From positions 1 through 52,286 of IMG/VR virus record IMGVR_UViG_3300046000_009647: DNA of 52,286 bases; one strand, 5' to 3'. This stretch comes from a virus (taxonomy: Duplodnaviria > Caudoviricetes). The translations under genes were made by a program, and so were the position numbers. Positions 14,933-38,578 of this stretch are shown piece after piece. The notes beneath the pieces were generated by a model. That model saw only the letters and a list, made by a program, of their open reading frames with translations. It ran no database searches and was not told the DNA's origin. Positions within the stretch are counted from its first letter, which is position 1, and every line of letters starts with the position of its first letter.

Positions 14933-14985
14933 TTATATAACTTTTATTTTGTGTGTTTGTAATTTGTAATATATGTAAAAGATGT

Positions 14986-15576
14986 TTAATATCCTAACAT
15001 TTTATTACTTTTCTTTCTATTATCTTCTTTCCAAAGTGGTTGGAAGTTAGTGTAATGATTTAACTTATAAATTTCTTCTTCATTCTTAGCTGATGAAATA
15101 GGTATTATATGGTCTATTTCCCATTCACCATGGTTTTCTAGAGTCATACCTTCAACAAATTGCGATTTTAAATGTTGGGTAAAATCTTCTAAAGTGCAAC
15201 CTAATACTTCTTCTGTTTTTTTTCCTTTTTTATAACTTCCTTTTAAACAATTTTTAAATGAAATTAAAATTAATGATCTAATATTATGAGTTAACCTGAT
15301 ATCAGGATCATTTTTCATTCTAGTTTTTTGATATTCTTTCCTATAACTTGTAGACTTTATATAATTATTTTTAGTATAATTTTTATCATAATCAGGGTTA
15401 TTATCTCTCCAATTTTTTAAATATAATAAGGTTTGAACTTTATTATTTTTTTGGTATTGAGTAACTCTAATTTTATCACAAGATTTACAATAATTATTTT
15501 TTTTATCCTTATTAGATTTATTTGAAGAAAAACTATCTAAAGATTTTTTAATTTTACATTTACTACATTTTTTCAT
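14986..15576 (-). CDS. HNH endonuclease with N-terminal CxxC..CxxC zinc finger (paralog 1)
   Basis: WEIDHIIPISS...HYTNFQPLW..DN..K. Confidence 0.88.
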   Translation of the reverse strand: MKKCSKCKIKKSLDSFSSNKSNKDKKNNYCKSCDKIRVTQYQKNNKVQTLLYLKNWRDNNPDYDKNYTKNNYIKSTSYRKEYQKTRMKNDPDIRLTHNIRSLILISFKNCLKGSYKKGKKTEEVLGCTLEDFTQHLKSQFVEGMTLENHGEWEIDHIIPISSAKNEEEIYKLNHYTNFQPLWKEDNRKKSNKMLGY

Positions 15577-15583
15577 TTGAAAT

Positions 15584-15679
15584 AAGAAACCTACAGCTTT
15601 CAGGGTCGCGGTCCTTACTTGCTATAGGTTCTAAATTAATATTTTATATTTGCACCGCGACAATGCACGTATAAATATT
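15584..15679 (-). ncRNA. Structured leader RNA (kissing loop plus loop E), copy 1
   Basis: TGCAT-TGTCGCG-GTGCA and AACCTATAGC-AAGTA-AGG-ACCGCGAC-CCT-GAAA-GCTGTAGGTT; near-identical to 31963-32058. Confidence 0.75.
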
Positions 15680-15688
15680 GAAAACCTA

Positions 15689-16717
15689 TTATTTTTTATG
15701 AGAGTATTTAGTTAAGTATGAAAAGTTAGAACTTAACCAAAATTCTATATTGGGGGAGATTTGCCTTTCTAGTAAATCTGATTTATGTAATTGTAAAAAT
15801 CTTGCTTGATTTAAAGTATAAGGATTTTCATCTATTAATCTTTCCAATACAATTTCATCAGGTTCAGGAATGTTTGGATTTTCTAAAGACATTAACTGCT
15901 CATTAATCATTAATTGTCCTCTAAAATTCCATACATTACCATAAATGCCATTTTCTTCATGACTTTCTAAACTTTTAGAAATAATTTCCTTTAATGTTAC
16001 TTTTTTATCTCCTGTAATTTCAGGGAATAATTTGTATAATTTTTTAGGACCTAATCCTTTAACTCCAGGTAAGTTATCAGAACTATCACCCATTAGCACT
16101 TTGTAATTAATGAAGTTTTGAGGCCATAATCCATACTCATCAAATACTTCTTTGGGTCCATAGAATTTTTTCTTAATTGGAGAGTATACTTGTACTGTAT
16201 CACTACACAATTGTAAGAAATCTTGATCGGCTGACATTATAATGGACGAGTCAAATCTAGGGGCTAAGTAACCAATTAAATCATCTGCTTCTAATTTATC
16301 TCTAGTTATAATGCTGATTGGTAATGTTTTTAGATAATCAATTAATCTTAGCATTTGTTGAGATAACGATGCAGATTCATCTGCTAAGTCATCAAATGAA
16401 GACCAATTTGTAATTCTTTTTAATTTACGATTACCTTTATAATCAGCATACAAATGTTTTCTATTTGTAGTATTTCCTTCACCATCAAAAACACATATTA
16501 CTCTAGTAGGTTGTACTAAATTTACAACGTAAGCTAATGATCTTAAAAATCCAATCATACCCCCAACGTGTGTTCCTTGTGTGTTTGTACTGTTTATAAC
16601 AGCAAATGACCTTAGGAAAGTATTCATACTATCCACTAACAAAACCCTACTGTTTAAATGTAGAGTTTCTGTTTGTGAATCTTCTTTTATGTTGTTTAAA
16701 AGATCTTTATAATCCAT
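15689..16717 (-). CDS. 5'-3' exonuclease/flap endonuclease (PolI N-terminal/T4 RNase H-like)
   Basis: VFDG, YKGNR, EADDLI, SADQDF, GDSSDNLPGVKGLG. Confidence 0.95.
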   Translation of the reverse strand: MDYKDLLNNIKEDSQTETLHLNSRVLLVDSMNTFLRSFAVINSTNTQGTHVGGMIGFLRSLAYVVNLVQPTRVICVFDGEGNTTNRKHLYADYKGNRKLKRITNWSSFDDLADESASLSQQMLRLIDYLKTLPISIITRDKLEADDLIGYLAPRFDSSIIMSADQDFLQLCSDTVQVYSPIKKKFYGPKEVFDEYGLWPQNFINYKVLMGDSSDNLPGVKGLGPKKLYKLFPEITGDKKVTLKEIISKSLESHEENGIYGNVWNFRGQLMINEQLMSLENPNIPEPDEIVLERLIDENPYTLNQARFLQLHKSDLLERQISPNIEFWLSSNFSYLTKYSHKK

Positions 16718-31954: not shown

Positions 31955-31962
31955 TTTTGATA

Positions 31963-32058
31963 AAGAAACCTATGGTTTTCAGGGTCGCGGTCCTTACTTA
32001 CCATAGGTTCTAAATTAATATTTTATATTTGCACCGCGACAATGCGGATATAAATATT
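31963..32058 (-). ncRNA. Structured leader RNA (kissing loop plus loop E), copy 2
   Basis: Same as 15584-15679 but stem is AACCTATGGT/ACCATAGGTT (compensatory changes). Confidence 0.75.
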
Positions 32059-32066
32059 TAAATTTA

Positions 32067-33072: not shown

Positions 33073-33717
33073 TTATTTGTTTGATTTATTTCTATTTCCT
33101 ATTTGGTCATTATAACCAAAAGATTCAGCTATTTTTGTTGTTTTAAATAATGGTTGTAAATTGGTATAATTAAAACATTCTTTTTGTTGTTTTTCTTCAG
33201 TTAAATTAAATTTAGAACAAGGTATTATATGATCTATTTCCCATATTTCTCCATGATTATCCCACGTCATTTCGGGTTTAAATAAAGATTCTAAATAATG
33301 TTTTAATTCATTAACTGAGCAGTCTAATAAATCTATGATAGATTGGATTTTGAATTGATTGGTAATAGCATTATAAAACCTACTTCTAAGATTATCTTTT
33401 ATTCTATATTCAATATCACTATTATATTTTTTACTTTTCCATTCTTTTTGATAATTGGGATTATTTTTCCACCATTTATCTATAGATTGTTTTTTCTTTT
33501 CAAAGTTATTTATATTATATTGTTTATTATAACTAGATATATATTCTTTATTATTATTTAACCATTCTTTATGTCTATTTTGTATTCTATCTTTATTTTG
33601 TTCTTTATACAATTTATGACAGGGTTTACAAATATAATGATACCCATCCTTTTGTCTTTTATTTTTAACAAAATTATTTAATGGTTTTTCCAAACTACAT
33701 TTAGTACATGTCTTCAT
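33073..33717 (-). CDS. HNH endonuclease with N-terminal zinc finger (paralog 3)
   Basis: MTWDNHG.IWEIDHIIPCS.F...NYTNLQPL. Confidence 0.88.
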   Translation of the reverse strand: MKTCTKCSLEKPLNNFVKNKRQKDGYHYICKPCHKLYKEQNKDRIQNRHKEWLNNNKEYISSYNKQYNINNFEKKKQSIDKWWKNNPNYQKEWKSKKYNSDIEYRIKDNLRSRFYNAITNQFKIQSIIDLLDCSVNELKHYLESLFKPEMTWDNHGEIWEIDHIIPCSKFNLTEEKQQKECFNYTNLQPLFKTTKIAESFGYNDQIGNRNKSNK

Positions 33718-36814: not shown

Positions 36815-38578
36815 TTAGAATAATGCATTCCAAGTTGTCCCATCGTAGTAATATAGAATACTAGCTCCTGCTGATCCTGAAGCTATTATCATACCTTCTA
36901 CGGGAGTTGGTGTTGTTGTTCTTCGTTGTAATATTAGAATATCGTTTAGTCTCGTTGATCCTGATACATCTAAGGTATAGGATGGTGTTGAAGTTCCTAT
37001 ACCTACTCTAGCATCAGATACTGAACCTGAGGATGGGTTACCAGTTGTTGTTGAGTACGATCCGGTTGCAAAAATTATTCCCCCTAAGTTAATTGCATTA
37101 CTTTGTTGTGGAGCTAGGGTTATATTTGTACCTATTATAATATTATTTGAACCTATGCTATTAGATGCTGTACTAGCAAGTCCTACTTGGTACCCCAGTA
37201 GTGTTGTATATGATGCACTTACTGCTAACTGACCTGCAGCATATCCTAAAAAATTACTATTATTTGCATTAACTGCGTAACGGCCGGTGTATTGTCCTAT
37301 AAAGTTTGACCTAGAAGCACTTGTTTCTTGACCTGTTTCTAATCCTAAGAAATTAGAACCCTCAATATTTACTGTATTTCGTCCTGCTCTATTTCCTAGA
37401 AAATTTGAATATCCTATATTGTTTGAAGCCCCACCAGCATTCCATCCCAACATAATTGATGCTGTTACGTTTGTTGTTGAGCTTGCTGGCCCTCCAGGAG
37501 GTGCTGTTGAGTATAGTGTACCTAAGTCAATGTTATTATTATATACTTCTATTGGACTTGTGTTTGGTGCCCAAGAAGCACTTAATGCTTGAGTAGCATA
37601 GGATGCAGTAGTTGAAAATGAAGCTGTTCCAAATAGTGAACCTGTTATTGAACCCGACACATTTAGTGAACCTGTTATTTGAAACTGAGAACCTGAGGCG
37701 AATACTAAATTTCTTCTTGCATTATCTGCCGTACCATTTCCTATAATAAAAGCAGCCTCTGCTGATGATGTTATATTAAACTGACCTTGTACATGTTGGT
37801 AATTACCTAATGCTATTGTTGAATTCCCTTCAGCATGTGAGTGTGATCCTGAAGCTAAGGTGTCATATCCTTCAGCATGGGATTTTTCACCTCTAGCTTC
37901 TGTATTATTTCCTTCAGCATGTGAATAATCTCCTGATGCTGTTGTATAATTTCCCTCAGCATGTGATCCTATTCCGGATGCTAGGGTATATTGTCCTTCG
38001 GCGTGTGAATAATTATTTGATGCAGTTGTAACATTTCCTTCAGCATGTGAGCCTATTCCTGAAGCTATTGTAGAGTCTCCTTCAGCATGAGCTGAAATAT
38101 TAGTTGCTTTGGTATTTGATCCTTGAGCATAAGAAAAATTTCCTGATGCCGTAAGGTTACTACCTTGAGTAAATGAATATAATCCTGTAGGGGTACTAGT
38201 GCCTAAAGTTAAACTTGAAGAATTATATATAAATTTAAAACCAGAATTTCCAGCTAAAACACTACCACTATTATATTGGACTTGTGTATCAGATCCCCCA
38301 GGTTGAGACACACTCATTGTAACTCCTAATGAAGCTGAGGCTAGATATGATAATTGTCCTGTAGTAGGATCATATGTAATTACATTAGCTCTAGAGGTAT
38401 TAGGTAATCCTTTTAAAAAGGTTGAACCTGTAACATTTAATGAACCAGATGTAGAGAGTGAACCTGTTATAATTATATCAATAGGAGTAACTCCATTTAA
38501 AGCATTTATTACTCTTAATAGATGTTCTGAATGGATTATTTGCCCTACTGCAATTCCTGATGTACTTATTGTAGCCAT
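36815..38578 (-). CDS. Tail fibre/adhesin with YadA-head-like 14-aa repeats
   Basis: Tandem SHAEGxxTxASG repeats, SNFLG repeats, VGIGTSTP. Confidence 0.8.
   Translation of the reverse strand: MATISTSGIAVGQIIHSEHLLRVINALNGVTPIDIIITGSLSTSGSLNVTGSTFLKGLPNTSRANVITYDPTTGQLSYLASASLGVTMSVSQPGGSDTQVQYNSGSVLAGNSGFKFIYNSSSLTLGTSTPTGLYSFTQGSNLTASGNFSYAQGSNTKATNISAHAEGDSTIASGIGSHAEGNVTTASNNYSHAEGQYTLASGIGSHAEGNYTTASGDYSHAEGNNTEARGEKSHAEGYDTLASGSHSHAEGNSTIALGNYQHVQGQFNITSSAEAAFIIGNGTADNARRNLVFASGSQFQITGSLNVSGSITGSLFGTASFSTTASYATQALSASWAPNTSPIEVYNNNIDLGTLYSTAPPGGPASSTTNVTASIMLGWNAGGASNNIGYSNFLGNRAGRNTVNIEGSNFLGLETGQETSASRSNFIGQYTGRYAVNANNSNFLGYAAGQLAVSASYTTLLGYQVGLASTASNSIGSNNIIIGTNITLAPQQSNAINLGGIIFATGSYSTTTGNPSSGSVSDARVGIGTSTPSYTLDVSGSTRLNDILILQRRTTTPTPVEGMIIASGSAGASILYYYDGTTWNALF
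37820..38095 (-). repeat. 42-bp coding tandem repeat (seven HAEG units)
   Basis: Recurrent ccttcagcatg(t/g/a)ga spaced 42 nt on the + strand. Confidence 0.8.

Follow-up and report, generated by a model that had tools for sequence, protein, structure and literature searches.

A conserved kissing-loop leader RNA precedes homing endonuclease and replication genes in uncultured phages

The window analyzed here is a 52,286-nucleotide stretch of DNA from an uncultured tailed phage (Duplodnaviria; Caudoviricetes; IMG/VR record IMGVR_UViG_3300046000_009647). On its minus strand, two genes for Zn-ribbon HNH endonucleases are each preceded by nearly the same leader, raising the question of whether this RNA serves the nuclease itself or the expression of whatever gene follows it. 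To our knowledge, the only structured leaders on record as moving with mobile nuclease genes are the simple hairpins of T-even phages, each specific to its gene. The original prediction, made from the window alone, was of an undescribed unit of RNA plus nuclease, with the RNA as cofactor, autoregulatory site or translational switch. Our best reading is that the leader belongs to an undescribed family of structured leader RNAs of about 85 to 95 nt, found in uncultured phages whose hosts are probably Bacteroidota.

RESULTS

Two copies of the leader share a two-hairpin fold

The minus-strand repeat covers 15577-15690(-) and 31963-32062(-), with 91% identity over 100 nt, and the folded copies occupy 15577-15679 and 31955-32058 on the same strand (Table 1). 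A scan of the window with the full covariance model (CM) returned only these two as copies, at 90.3 and 91.3 bits, and the next score was 21.9; the leader is indeed repeated almost exactly, as first noticed. Each copy contains two hairpins. In copy 1, GUCGCGG in loop 1 (15661-15655) is exactly complementary to CCGCGAC in loop 2 (15611-15605), and the kiss sequence of copy 2 is identical. Single-sequence folding gave z = -3.3 and -3.8 for the two copies, so the fold exceeds chance. Within the structured part, the copies differ in two places, the lower stem of hairpin 2 and the hairpin-1 base. Pairing is kept in all five of the lower-stem differences (A-U to G-C, C-G to U-A and U.G to U-A), with three compensatory differences in copy 2 relative to copy 1. 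The internal loop predicted as AGTA/GAA is present in both copies as AGUA facing GAAA between Watson-Crick helices. The consensus of the sarcin-ricin or loop-E (bulged-G) motif is AGUA/GAA, and the likeness here is one of sequence signature. The stem of hairpin 1 has 3 to 4 bp in the window copies and 4 to 6 bp in other members of the family described below. An alternative hairpin 1, with a stem of 6 to 7 bp and a triloop, is the minimum free energy (MFE) fold of the single sequence; it has no support in the family alignment and was rejected.

Table 1. Coordinates of the leader copies and associated features in the window
Feature	Position	Strand	Basis
Promoter-like box AATATTTATA, copy 1, directly 5' of hairpin 1	15670..15679	-	sequence, motif strand bias
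Hairpin 1, copy 1: UGCA (15667-15664), loop UUGUCGCGG, UGCA (15654-15651); kissing strand 1, 15655-15661 (GUCGCGG)	15651..15667	-	sequence, family covariation
A/U-rich single-stranded linker, copy 1, 20 nt, includes AAAAUAUU	15631..15650	-	family comparison
Hairpin 2, copy 1, whole element	15588..15630	-	fold and family alignment
Hairpin 2, copy 1, lower stem AACCUAUAGC/GCUGUAGGUU, including one U.G pair	15621-15630 with 15588-15597	-	
Hairpin 2, copy 1, internal loop AAGUA/GAAA	AAGUA 15616-15620, GAAA 15598-15601	-	
Hairpin 2, copy 1, inner stem AGG/CCU	15613-15615 with 15602-15604	-	
Hairpin 2, copy 1, loop ACCGCGAC; kissing strand 2, 15605-15611 (CCGCGAC)	15605-15612	-	
U-rich tail UUCUUAUUUCAA, copy 1, from hairpin 2 to the ATG	15577..15587	-	sequence
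Promoter-like box AATATTTATA, copy 2	32049..32058	-	sequence, motif search
Hairpin 1, copy 2: GCA/UUGUCGCGG/UGC; kissing strand 1, 32034-32040	32031..32045	-	sequence, repeat comparison, folding
Hairpin 2, copy 2: lower stem AACCUAUGGU/ACCAUAGGUU, AAGUA/GAAA, AGG/CCU, loop ACCGCGAC	31967..32009	-	
Hairpin 2, copy 2, kissing strand 2	31984-31990	-	
Zn-ribbon and HNH endonuclease ORF 1, 196 aa	14986..15576	-	ORF; weak Pfam HNH match
Zn-ribbon and HNH endonuclease ORF 2, 207 aa	31331..31954	-	49% identical to ORF 1
Insertion cassette (approximate): alternative rnh 3' end, leader and HNH gene	14981..15736	-	contig junctions, relatives

All four helices, including the kiss, covary across the family

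Forty distinct relatives were collected from viral and metagenome contigs. Exact or loosely gapped patterns taken from the window loops found one near-identical relative, and six of seven loci matched by looser loop patterns were rejected as chance matches in G+C-rich contigs. One metagenome scan, with an A/T-rich pattern, gave at least 119 stretches, almost all of them chance, with two members (L044 and L140) among the matches listed. A search anchored on the HNH 1 protein found the leader at 2 of 12 loci (L010 and L011). None of 14 loci from a scan of prokaryote genome contigs passed the structure check, and the CM, run on 4 and then on 151 Bacteroidia genomes with 25 to 150 candidates scored in each, found no member. 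Comparison of two leaders with 50,697 phage records by blastn gave no real match, and with the CM no match below E = 0.079 was obtained in Flavobacterium phages immuto and elemoA.

The 40 distinct members were aligned with MAFFT, without fitting to a model. In this alignment 91.1% of cells pair (69.0% in shuffles) and double changes occur at 22 of 26 pairs; the covariation score of 0.622, compared with 0.201 in shuffles, was reached by 0 of 500 shuffles. Slid controls of the same alignment paired at 32 to 44%, and RNAalifold independently predicted the same nested helices. Covariation is present in hairpin 1 (columns 10-13 with 23-26, e.g. AU:14, UA:13, CG:10), the 7-bp kiss, the lower stem of hairpin 2, whose upper six pairs are 97.5% paired with double changes at all six, and the 3-bp inner stem, which is 99.2% paired across the family. 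The kiss helix is 98.6% paired over the 40 sequences, with double changes at four of seven pairs (columns 17/75, for example, have AU:17, CG:12, UA:8, GC:2). The predicted complementarity of the loops thus holds up as covariation, and the length proposed for it, 6 to 8 bp, settles at 7 bp family-wide. The remaining three kiss pairs were fixed by the search pattern, as were AGUA, GAAA and the ATATT of the linker (14 to 21 nt and 91% A/U across the family), so that the conservation of those features is partly imposed. This applies to the AGUA/GAAA signature in all 40 pattern-derived members; the signature is also present in an independent member found by CM only (L278, 47.6 bits), which has its own 6-bp kiss, GUGCAG/CUGCAC, and the inner stem GGC/GCC.

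When the four central loop bases were left free in the pattern, 45 distinct non-genome matches were obtained, of which 43 had the exact upstream complement, one had it with one mismatch and one was a non-member. Among the 14 chance matches in prokaryote genomes, none had a complement with fewer than two mismatches. The family uses no fewer than 14 different complementary pairs of kiss heptamers. This pattern of covariation indicates that the two hairpin loops form a kissing-loop (loop-loop pseudoknot) RNA. U.G pairs are frequent, occurring at two stem positions in 20 and 24 of the 40 sequences; since these would be A.C mismatches on the opposite strand, the RNA lies on the strand of the downstream gene, in the window the minus strand, in agreement with the original prediction.

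The leader matches no Rfam 15 family

Searched with the covariance models of Rfam 15, the whole window gave 11 tRNAs only at gathering score. With the E limit relaxed to 10, positions 15500-15760 gave four weak unrelated matches, all at least 18 bits under their gathering scores, and four loci with other members gave none, so the expectation that the leader would belong to no described Rfam family was borne out. Small ribozymes are common in phage metagenomes, and a ribozyme that shortens the 5' leader by self-cleavage would suit the compact pseudoknotted fold, the invariant unpaired purines (AGUA, GAAA) and the occurrence in phages. This reading is scarcely credible: even with E relaxed to 10 there is no match to an Rfam 15 ribozyme family, an ordinary bulged-G structural module has the same invariant bases, which the search patterns also imposed, and few further unpaired positions are conserved. 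Three other classes were set aside: a group I intron remnant, there being no split host gene; a riboswitch, given metabolically incoherent downstream genes and few conserved unpaired bases; and a single-stranded DNA structure, since the loop-E signature and promoter context favor RNA. Our literature search found no description of the motif. A published set of 10,006 unnamed candidate RNAs from IMG/VR mentions neither HNH nor kissing in its main text, and its supplementary tables may include the motif (PMC10690425).

Leader and HNH gene appear to insert together, and other genes also carry the leader

The window HNH proteins are of homing type, about 200 aa long, with no Pfam domain besides a weak HNH match; for ORF 1 this has E = 0.005, under the curated cut-off, and its translation contains the IDHIIP...N motif. 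In DNA contigs from a lake metagenome (run X11), position 14980 is joined to 15737 with 11 other letters between. In a relative whose rnh is 92% identical (G001), the helicase gene directly follows rnh, 11 nt apart, with neither HNH gene nor leader, and Flavobacterium phage immuto has the same synteny and lacks the HNH gene. The joint absence of leader and HNH gene from this site in a close relative shows that the two move together, and these junctions mark them as one insertion unit. The proposed mobile unit of RNA and nuclease stands in this respect.

At first inspection, such an arrangement recalls HEARO, the omega-RNA of IscB, which also adjoins an HNH-domain gene on a mobile element and has a model in Rfam. 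There, the partner of a protein with RuvC and HNH domains is a large structured RNA, part of which is free to act as a guide. The leader differs in being about 90 nt long, in lying 5' of the ORF, in having variable loops that pair with each other and in also preceding non-nuclease genes; the proteins here are Zn-ribbon proteins of 196 and 207 aa that differ from IscB in having only the weak HNH match. No HEARO match was obtained at gathering score in the window, nor at E up to 10 in the leader region, and the dissimilarity originally noted is real.

The genes that follow the 40 distinct leaders, a biased and partly redundant sample in which one kiss sequence is common to 13 of 40, comprise 21 homing endonuclease-like genes, 14 replication-initiator-like or replisome-organizer-like genes and five small unknown ORFs. 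Four kinds of endonuclease are represented: Zn-ribbon HNH, NUMOD4 plus HNH_3, HNH plus NUMOD3, and GIY-YIG. The phages themselves are very different (T4-like, about 34 kb, and 66 to 79 kb). Complete phages of about 34 kb have exactly one copy, located before the replication-initiator gene of the replication module, and among the small phages the leader is kept while the gene after it differs. Two GIY-YIG ORFs (in L023 and L024) open with the first six HNH codons, MKKCTK, which suggests recombination at a joint just within the ORF; with a joint in the first codons, leader and initiation region behave as one module.

The leader is therefore not protein-specific. A dedicated partnership with the Zn-finger HNH protein, whether as cofactor or guide or as an operator for self-repression, would account for the joint gain and loss, for the endonuclease genes after 21 of 40 leaders and for a leader that, as first observed, is more conserved than the protein (91% versus 49% identity). 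Against it, the endonucleases come from unrelated families (three unrelated HNH architectures plus GIY-YIG), replication initiators follow 14 of 40 leaders, and two of the four Zn-ribbon HNH paralogues in the window have the promoter box without a leader. Moreover, the pairing of the variable loops with each other leaves no segment evidently free to act as a guide. We regard such a partnership as highly improbable. Of the original functional proposals, cofactor (unlikely on present evidence) and autoregulatory operator are thus not supported, and a cis-acting expression switch is possible. The idea of a unit dedicated to its nuclease is likewise unsupported.

A promoter-like box and a U-run flank the fold

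The ATATTTAT motif noticed upstream of the leader is a real, strand-biased signal, with 22 occurrences on the minus (coding) strand of the window and 3 on the plus strand; it precedes many window genes, mostly 20 to 45 nt upstream of the start codon. In nearly all members, a box resembling TAnnTTTG/A is found no more than about 20 nt upstream of hairpin 1 (upstream sequences read by eye), and members start a few bases past a box of the Bacteroidota -7 type, for which a consensus is quoted in PMC2483708. At the other end, the lower stem of hairpin 2 has 9 to 13 bp in 32 of 40 members and is bulged in the remaining eight. The first eight bases past the stem include seven T in 31 of 40 members (mean 6.6 T); in the T4-like members, the window included, this U-run is interrupted (UUUCUUAUUU). 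From the end of the stem and U-run to the start codon is 8 to 17 nt in most members, and the U-run adjoins the stem even in three members whose ORF starts about 45 nt beyond.

The lambda PR'-6S RNA-tR' region exemplifies a promoter-proximal attenuator. Like it and other intrinsic terminators, the leader has a G+C-containing stem followed by a U-run, shortly past a promoter-like box and before the genes that would be regulated; it differs in that the stem encloses a structured insert of about 30 nt that kisses an upstream hairpin, a loop far larger than usual, and its terminator role is putative. A simple terminator scan of the window did not call hairpin 2 and its U-run, because the loop limit of the scan is 3 to 8. 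We tentatively favor the view that the leader is a portable, promoter-proximal expression-control module, probably an attenuator, for dosage-sensitive genes whose products act on DNA. Promoter, leader and initiation region would form one cis-acting unit, with hairpin 2 and the U-run as a leaky intrinsic terminator (attenuator or insulator) and the kiss and loop-E turn locking the fold. Leaky termination would limit the downstream gene to low or timed expression, and homing endonucleases and replication initiators act on DNA and may be harmful if overproduced. Homing-endonuclease cassettes, both window ones included, would bring the module along. Several points weigh against an attenuator: the atypical structured insert in the terminator hairpin, the interrupted U-run of the T4-like members, and a narrow start-codon spacing that suits a translational role equally. 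In addition, the sole RNA-library contig (257 nt, depth 2.9, 15355-15610, from the thin coverage of runs X23 and X24) crosses the U-run into the HNH gene. It may stem from contaminating DNA; if it is RNA, termination at the U-run is at most partial.

A leader acting on translation or mRNA stability is the alternative closest to these data, and we consider it somewhat unlikely. The compact 5' fold would block 5'-end-dependent decay, or would position or recruit the ribosome on the A/U stretch in hosts that do not use Shine-Dalgarno sequences, and the U-run would be an initiation region rather than a terminator. The fold indeed lies at or beside the predicted transcription start, no Shine-Dalgarno sequence was seen before the leader-associated starts (window copy 1 and the other members inspected), and the recombination joint falls in the first codons. 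The distance from the end of GAAA to the ATG is 17 to 26 nt in 36 of 40 members, although the downstream genes are unrelated. In T-even phages, RNA hairpins act on homing-endonuclease translation, according to the available part of PMC2988022. However, no helix of the consensus structure includes the ATG or the 8 to 17 nt before it. Nothing is therefore sequestered, and the leader is not a ribosome-binding-site-sequestering hairpin of the T-even type, in which a late promoter within the hairpin releases that site. In the T4-like subgroup, MFE folding of read-through transcripts allows the promoter box to pair with the linker; the start region is untouched, and the pairing is not conserved in the L215 group (sequences read by eye). 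Three members have their ORF start about 45 nt past the U-run, and the putative ribosome-binding consensus of F. johnsoniae, TAAAA (PMC2483708), is A-rich whereas the stem-adjacent stretch is a U-run. Finally, a simple 5' hairpin would suffice for protection, which leaves the conserved kiss and loop-E unexplained.

DISCUSSION

Among the closest known systems are the T-even hairpins of I-TevI, I-TevII, I-TevIII, segB and mobE of Aeh1, as described in the available part of PMC2988022. There too, a structured RNA immediately precedes a homing-endonuclease gene, either free-standing or within an intron, and has a promoter at its 5' edge; those RNAs are simple gene-specific stems that sequester the Shine-Dalgarno site (PMC2988022, same part). 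The leader, in contrast, leaves the start region outside its helices, has a conserved two-hairpin kiss and is common to unrelated genes, including non-nuclease genes.

A second comparison is with antiterminators of the put type, in which a nascent two-stem RNA binds the zinc-binding domain of beta' and suppresses downstream termination. The available part of PMC9378689 describes HK022 putL (with putR, one of the two put sites) as about 70 nt long, with two stem-loops just downstream of the early promoter PL, and put RNA as acting in cis without a phage protein. If the leader worked in this way, the nascent RNA would act on polymerase or host elongation factors to confer resistance to pausing or termination, and an endonuclease cassette would not be polar on the genes behind it. 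Like putL as that account presents it, the leader is a phage RNA of similar size, with two stem-loops directly after a promoter box (PMC9378689). Its presence in very different phages favors a host target over a phage protein. The likeness is one of position and size alone, and the leader itself ends in a terminator-like stem and U-run, making a put-like role quite improbable. Compared by description, put RNA has a V shape and a triplex in its stem I, the same part of the source mentioning no loop-loop kiss (PMC9378689), and the leader has the covarying 7-bp kiss, the loop-E type internal loop and the U-run right past hairpin 2.

Loop-mediated, long-range pairing in which the loops differ and stay complementary is shared with two further groups. 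In the rep leaders of IncB, IncI-alpha and IncL/M plasmids, a pseudoknot and loop-loop antisense pairing control replication-initiator genes, and like the leaders of the small phages they lie upstream of a replication initiator; an antisense RNA, a leader peptide and pairing with the initiation region are not evident in the leader. The phi29 pRNA is part of the packaging motor of another phage group and pairs between molecules. The specificity loops of plasmid copy-control RNAs and of pRNA also vary faster than their stems, and the kiss does likewise: in a group of 14 close relatives, the hairpin-1 stem is the same and the lower stems are almost identical, but three different kiss pairs occur. 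These parallels bear on the reading in which a phage small RNA of about 90 nt is itself the product, acting in trans or multimerising through its loops, for instance in replication control, with the downstream gene read through. Promoter box, compact fold and stem with U-run would make a complete small-RNA gene, each complete genome of about 34 kb has one copy beside its replication-initiator gene, and both window copies have one kiss sequence in common. Against this, the two copies of one record (G004) carry different kiss sequences, the linker of 14 to 21 nt suits an intramolecular coaxial kiss by our own estimate of the geometry, no target or partner is identifiable, and a constant site and orientation right before an ORF would be expected more of a cis element. 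We judge the small-RNA reading distinctly unlikely.

We think a bolder proposal unlikely. The leader would be a new class of phage riboregulator, a discrete RNA of about 90 nt made from its own promoter, with the 7-bp kiss as a programmable specificity code that evolves fast and is more than a structural clamp. Whether polymerase stops at the U-run would depend on the kiss, which could be intramolecular, intermolecular or blocked in read-through transcripts. This choice would gate the replication initiator in small phages, and homing endonucleases would have taken over the device as a self-contained, self-limiting expression cassette.

The leader appears to be a conserved three-dimensional RNA module, with unusually clean covariation that extends to a tertiary loop-loop contact. 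It is common to very different uncultured phages and reused before four kinds of homing endonuclease and before replication initiators. The kiss can be re-coded freely, making loop-swap experiments straightforward. Bacteroidota have unusual promoters and do not base initiation on Shine-Dalgarno sequences. If its action were worked out, the leader would show how phages of these bacteria control when, or how strongly, dangerous DNA-acting proteins are expressed, and it could provide a compact natural part, promoter plus insulating leader, for expression in Bacteroidota.

A leader RNA precedes two HNH genes of a T4-like phage

The 52-kb window is an A/T-rich fragment of a T4-like phage (CheckV completeness estimate, 32%), found in sequencing runs from lake-water and freshwater metagenomes; its closest named relatives are Flavobacterium phages. 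On the minus strand, genes for a gp32-like SSB, a RecA/UvsX-like protein and a 5'-3' exonuclease (rnh) are followed by a 196-aa Zn-ribbon HNH ORF, a DnaB-like helicase gene and nrdB. Phage immuto has this gene order, but its exonuclease-helicase interval holds no HNH gene. In the window, the gap from the rnh stop codon to the HNH ATG is filled by a structured leader (copy 1), of which another copy (copy 2) lies 16.4 kb away, 5' of a further HNH ORF. The near-exact repeat of the original prediction is thus real: the leaders share 91% identity over 100 nt and their HNH proteins 49%, and a full covariance model (CM) scan of the window returned these two copies only.

Loop 1 of copy 1, GUCGCGG, is exactly complementary to loop 2, CCGCGAC. 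Differences between the copies in the structured part are confined to the foot of hairpin 1 and to five sites in the lower stem of hairpin 2; at all five, pairing is preserved. The fold first read from the window was correct overall for both copies, except that hairpin 1 has just 3-4 bp there and the family-wide kiss between the loops is 7 bp. A single-sequence MFE version of hairpin 1 finds no support in the family alignment.

Features of the window, with the predicted fold of the copy 1 leader
Feature	Content	Position	Strand	Element
Box	AATATTTATA	15679-15670	-	copy 1
Hairpin 1	UGCA / UUGUCGCGG / UGCA	15667-15651	-	copy 1
Linker	20-nt A/U	15650-15631	-	copy 1
Hairpin 2 lower stem	AACCUAUAGC / GCUGUAGGUU	within 15630-15588	-	copy 1
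Hairpin 2 internal loop	AAGUA / GAAA	within 15630-15588	-	copy 1
Hairpin 2 inner stem	AGG / CCU	within 15630-15588	-	copy 1
Hairpin 2 loop	ACCGCGAC	within 15630-15588	-	copy 1
Tail	UUCUUAUUUCAA	15587-15577	-	copy 1
Start codon	AUG	15576	-	copy 1
Leaderless HNH paralogues	promoter box, short unstructured 5' region	33073-33717; 49604-50155	-	
nATATTTAT boxes (examples)		50178; 36513; 34341; 29040; 13547	-	
tRNA genes	11, clustered at window start (Rfam tRNA, 35-67 bits)	136-3491	-	
42-nt repeat	8 units, head-to-tail, within coding region; 60-76% identity to reference copy; probably a 14-residue repeat of a structural or fibre protein	37780-38131		

The kissing fold covaries across a family of leaders

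A protein-anchored search reached 12 HNH loci, with the leader at two. Sequence patterns, first with the loops left free and then with only ATATT, AGUA, inner-stem classes, C....AC and GAAA fixed, yielded many more viral contigs. Of 45 distinct non-genome matches left after screening, 43 carried the exact reverse complement of the loop 2 heptamer upstream; the others were L213, a chance match, and L044. The latter contig (955-1064, +) holds the sole member with a kiss mismatch (GUUACGG vs CCGCAAC), intermediate between two perfect variants; its ATG at the usual distance opens a 10-codon frame only, and a 230-aa NUMOD-type ORF begins 8 nt further on. As a negative control, the same fixed pattern matched 14 times in 185,579 prokaryote genomes, none with the stem or with a kiss complement at up to one mismatch.

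Forty distinct leaders, 13 of them from one closely related group, were aligned with MAFFT with no fitting to any structure. Paired cells made up 91.1% of this alignment, compared with 69.0% of shuffled ones; both sides had changed in 22 of 26 pairs, and none of 500 shuffles attained the covariation score (0.622 vs 0.201). When partners were slid by 1-3 columns, pairing fell to 32-44%. RNAalifold, unaided, predicted identical nested helices. The predicted loop-loop complementarity holds up as well: the kiss helix is 98.6% paired and uses at least 14 heptamer pairs, with 2-4 pair types at each of its four pattern-free positions. The sample is pattern-derived and had three kiss pairs, AGUA, GAAA and ATATT imposed on it. 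A further member found by the CM only (L278, 47.6 bits) differs in its inner stem (GGC/GCC) and joins its loops through a 6-bp kiss not shared with the others, GUGCAG/CUGCAC, but retains AGUA/GAAA and the U-run. At two lower-stem positions U.G is the commonest state (20/40 and 24/40), which means that fold and downstream gene share a strand, in agreement with the minus strand originally assigned from one G-U pair. The linker measures 14-21 nt, by our estimate roughly enough to span hairpin 1, kiss, inner stem, loop-E and lower stem when these are stacked coaxially, which would fit an intramolecular kiss. Within one closely related group the kiss changes faster than the stems, as might be expected of a discrete small RNA acting through re-codable loops, a reading we consider unlikely.

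The leader moves with an HNH gene and precedes diverse genes

A relative with 92% identical rnh and an unchanged copy 2 has an rnh-helicase gap of 11 nt, lacking both HNH gene and leader, and lake DNA contigs have the identical joint (14980 to 15737). This places the leader within the inserted cassette, as expected of the proposed mobile unit. Another lake contig has, at the copy 1 site, a hairpin 2 like that of contig L026 (AGG/CCU to GAG/CUC, loop 2 CUCCGAC).

Downstream genes were classed by blastp clusters, with representatives named by Pfam or PHROGs. The supposed tie to nucleases stands for 21 of the 40 leaders, which precede homing-endonuclease-like genes (5 Zn-ribbon HNH, 11 in a mixed NUMOD4+HNH_3/GIY-YIG cluster, 3 HNH+NUMOD3, L225 and L232), but 14 precede replication-initiator, replisome-organizer or DUF6291-like genes and 5 small unknown ORFs; the L278 leader lies 5' of a DnaD-like loader or replication-initiation gene. 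Such diversity all but excludes any protein-specific role, and two of the four Zn-ribbon HNH paralogues in the window lack the leader; that it serves as nuclease cofactor or operator, as first proposed, is very improbable. In L023 (5344-5997, -) and L024 (2864-3517, -), ORFs with a GIY-YIG-like start (IYLVTN...VYIG) open with MKKCTK, encoded also by the six initial codons of the L025 Zn-ribbon HNH gene behind the same leader. To judge from these sequences, MKKCTK marks a recombination joint just inside the ORF, which suggests swaps of coding sequence behind a leader that stays constant.

The RNA was present in each of the 38 viral records searched, mostly in one copy; three records of 51-79 kb had two. 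Complete ~34-kb genomes have exactly one, between recombination and replication modules (L215, 3468-7586, +). In these phages the recombination module comprises, by eye from translations, a single-strand annealing protein, a YqaJ-like exonuclease and a NinG-like protein. Otherwise near-identical ~34-kb genomes differ in the gene directly after the leader.

The leader starts near a promoter-like box and ends in a U-run

Upstream sequences, read by eye, have a TAnnTTTG/A-like box at most about 20 nt 5' of hairpin 1 in nearly all members (a few bases from the stem in most, ~17 nt in the L218 group). PMC2483708 quotes TAnnTTTG/A as the -7 consensus of Bacteroidota. The window version, ATATTTAT (nATATTTAT), has 22 copies on the coding strand and 3 on the other, mostly 20-45 nt 5' of start codons, often after a hairpin and T-run, and before DNA-metabolism and structural genes alike. 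It resembles the -7 box and is probably a general promoter element of this phage; because it sits just upstream, the RNA probably starts at hairpin 1. In a G+C-richer subgroup (L162, 8430-8571, +; L218, 1470-1608, +; relatives L248 and L257), an extra GCC-GAAA-GGC (GNRA) hairpin lies between box and hairpin 1. Farther upstream in L162, GCUGCCUACC is complementary to loop 1 and the 3' strand of hairpin 1, and by pairing there instead might prevent the kiss.

Of the 8 bases directly 3' of the lower stem, 7 are T in 31 of 40 members (mean 6.6). This U-run keeps its place by the stem in three members whose ORF starts ~45 nt later, and by this positional evidence is part of the RNA element, not of the start region. 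The only expression evidence, a single thin RNA-library contig crossing the U-run into the window HNH gene, hints weakly, if at all, at read-through. The GAAA-to-ATG distance is 17-26 nt in 36 of 40 members; such tight spacing speaks for a translational or mRNA-stability role, which we nonetheless regard as rather doubtful.

A new family among structured phage leaders

The leader is absent from Rfam, in which the window, the leader region and the loci of other members were searched; as first supposed, it has no matching family there and is distinct from HEARO/omega-RNA. That it is a ribozyme is scarcely credible. Blastn against 50,697 deposited phage records, the CM on two cultured Flavobacterium phages and the searches of Bacteroidia genomes all failed to find it. 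We found no description of it in the literature searched, although the 10,006 unnamed candidate RNAs of PMC10690425 may include it. Known elements nearest to it are promoter-proximal attenuators, put RNA and the hairpins that sequester the RBS of homing-endonuclease genes in T-even phages (PMC2988022). As they are described, none has the kissing/loop-E architecture, and the RBS sequestration that defines the T-even hairpins is not seen in the leader. That it acts on polymerase as put does is improbable, and a mode of action so far undescribed rather unlikely.

We rate the leader as a new family of an already known kind of element, the structured phage leader. Its covarying kissing fold of two hairpins is promoter-proximal, lies on the sense strand and finishes in a stem and U-run just before an ORF, and we infer that the leader is a cis-acting expression-control module. 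Our tentative preference, at somewhat less than an even chance, is a leaky terminator serving as attenuator or insulator: polymerase would stop in part at the stem and U-run, limiting or timing the output of downstream genes, whose DNA-acting products would be harmful in excess.
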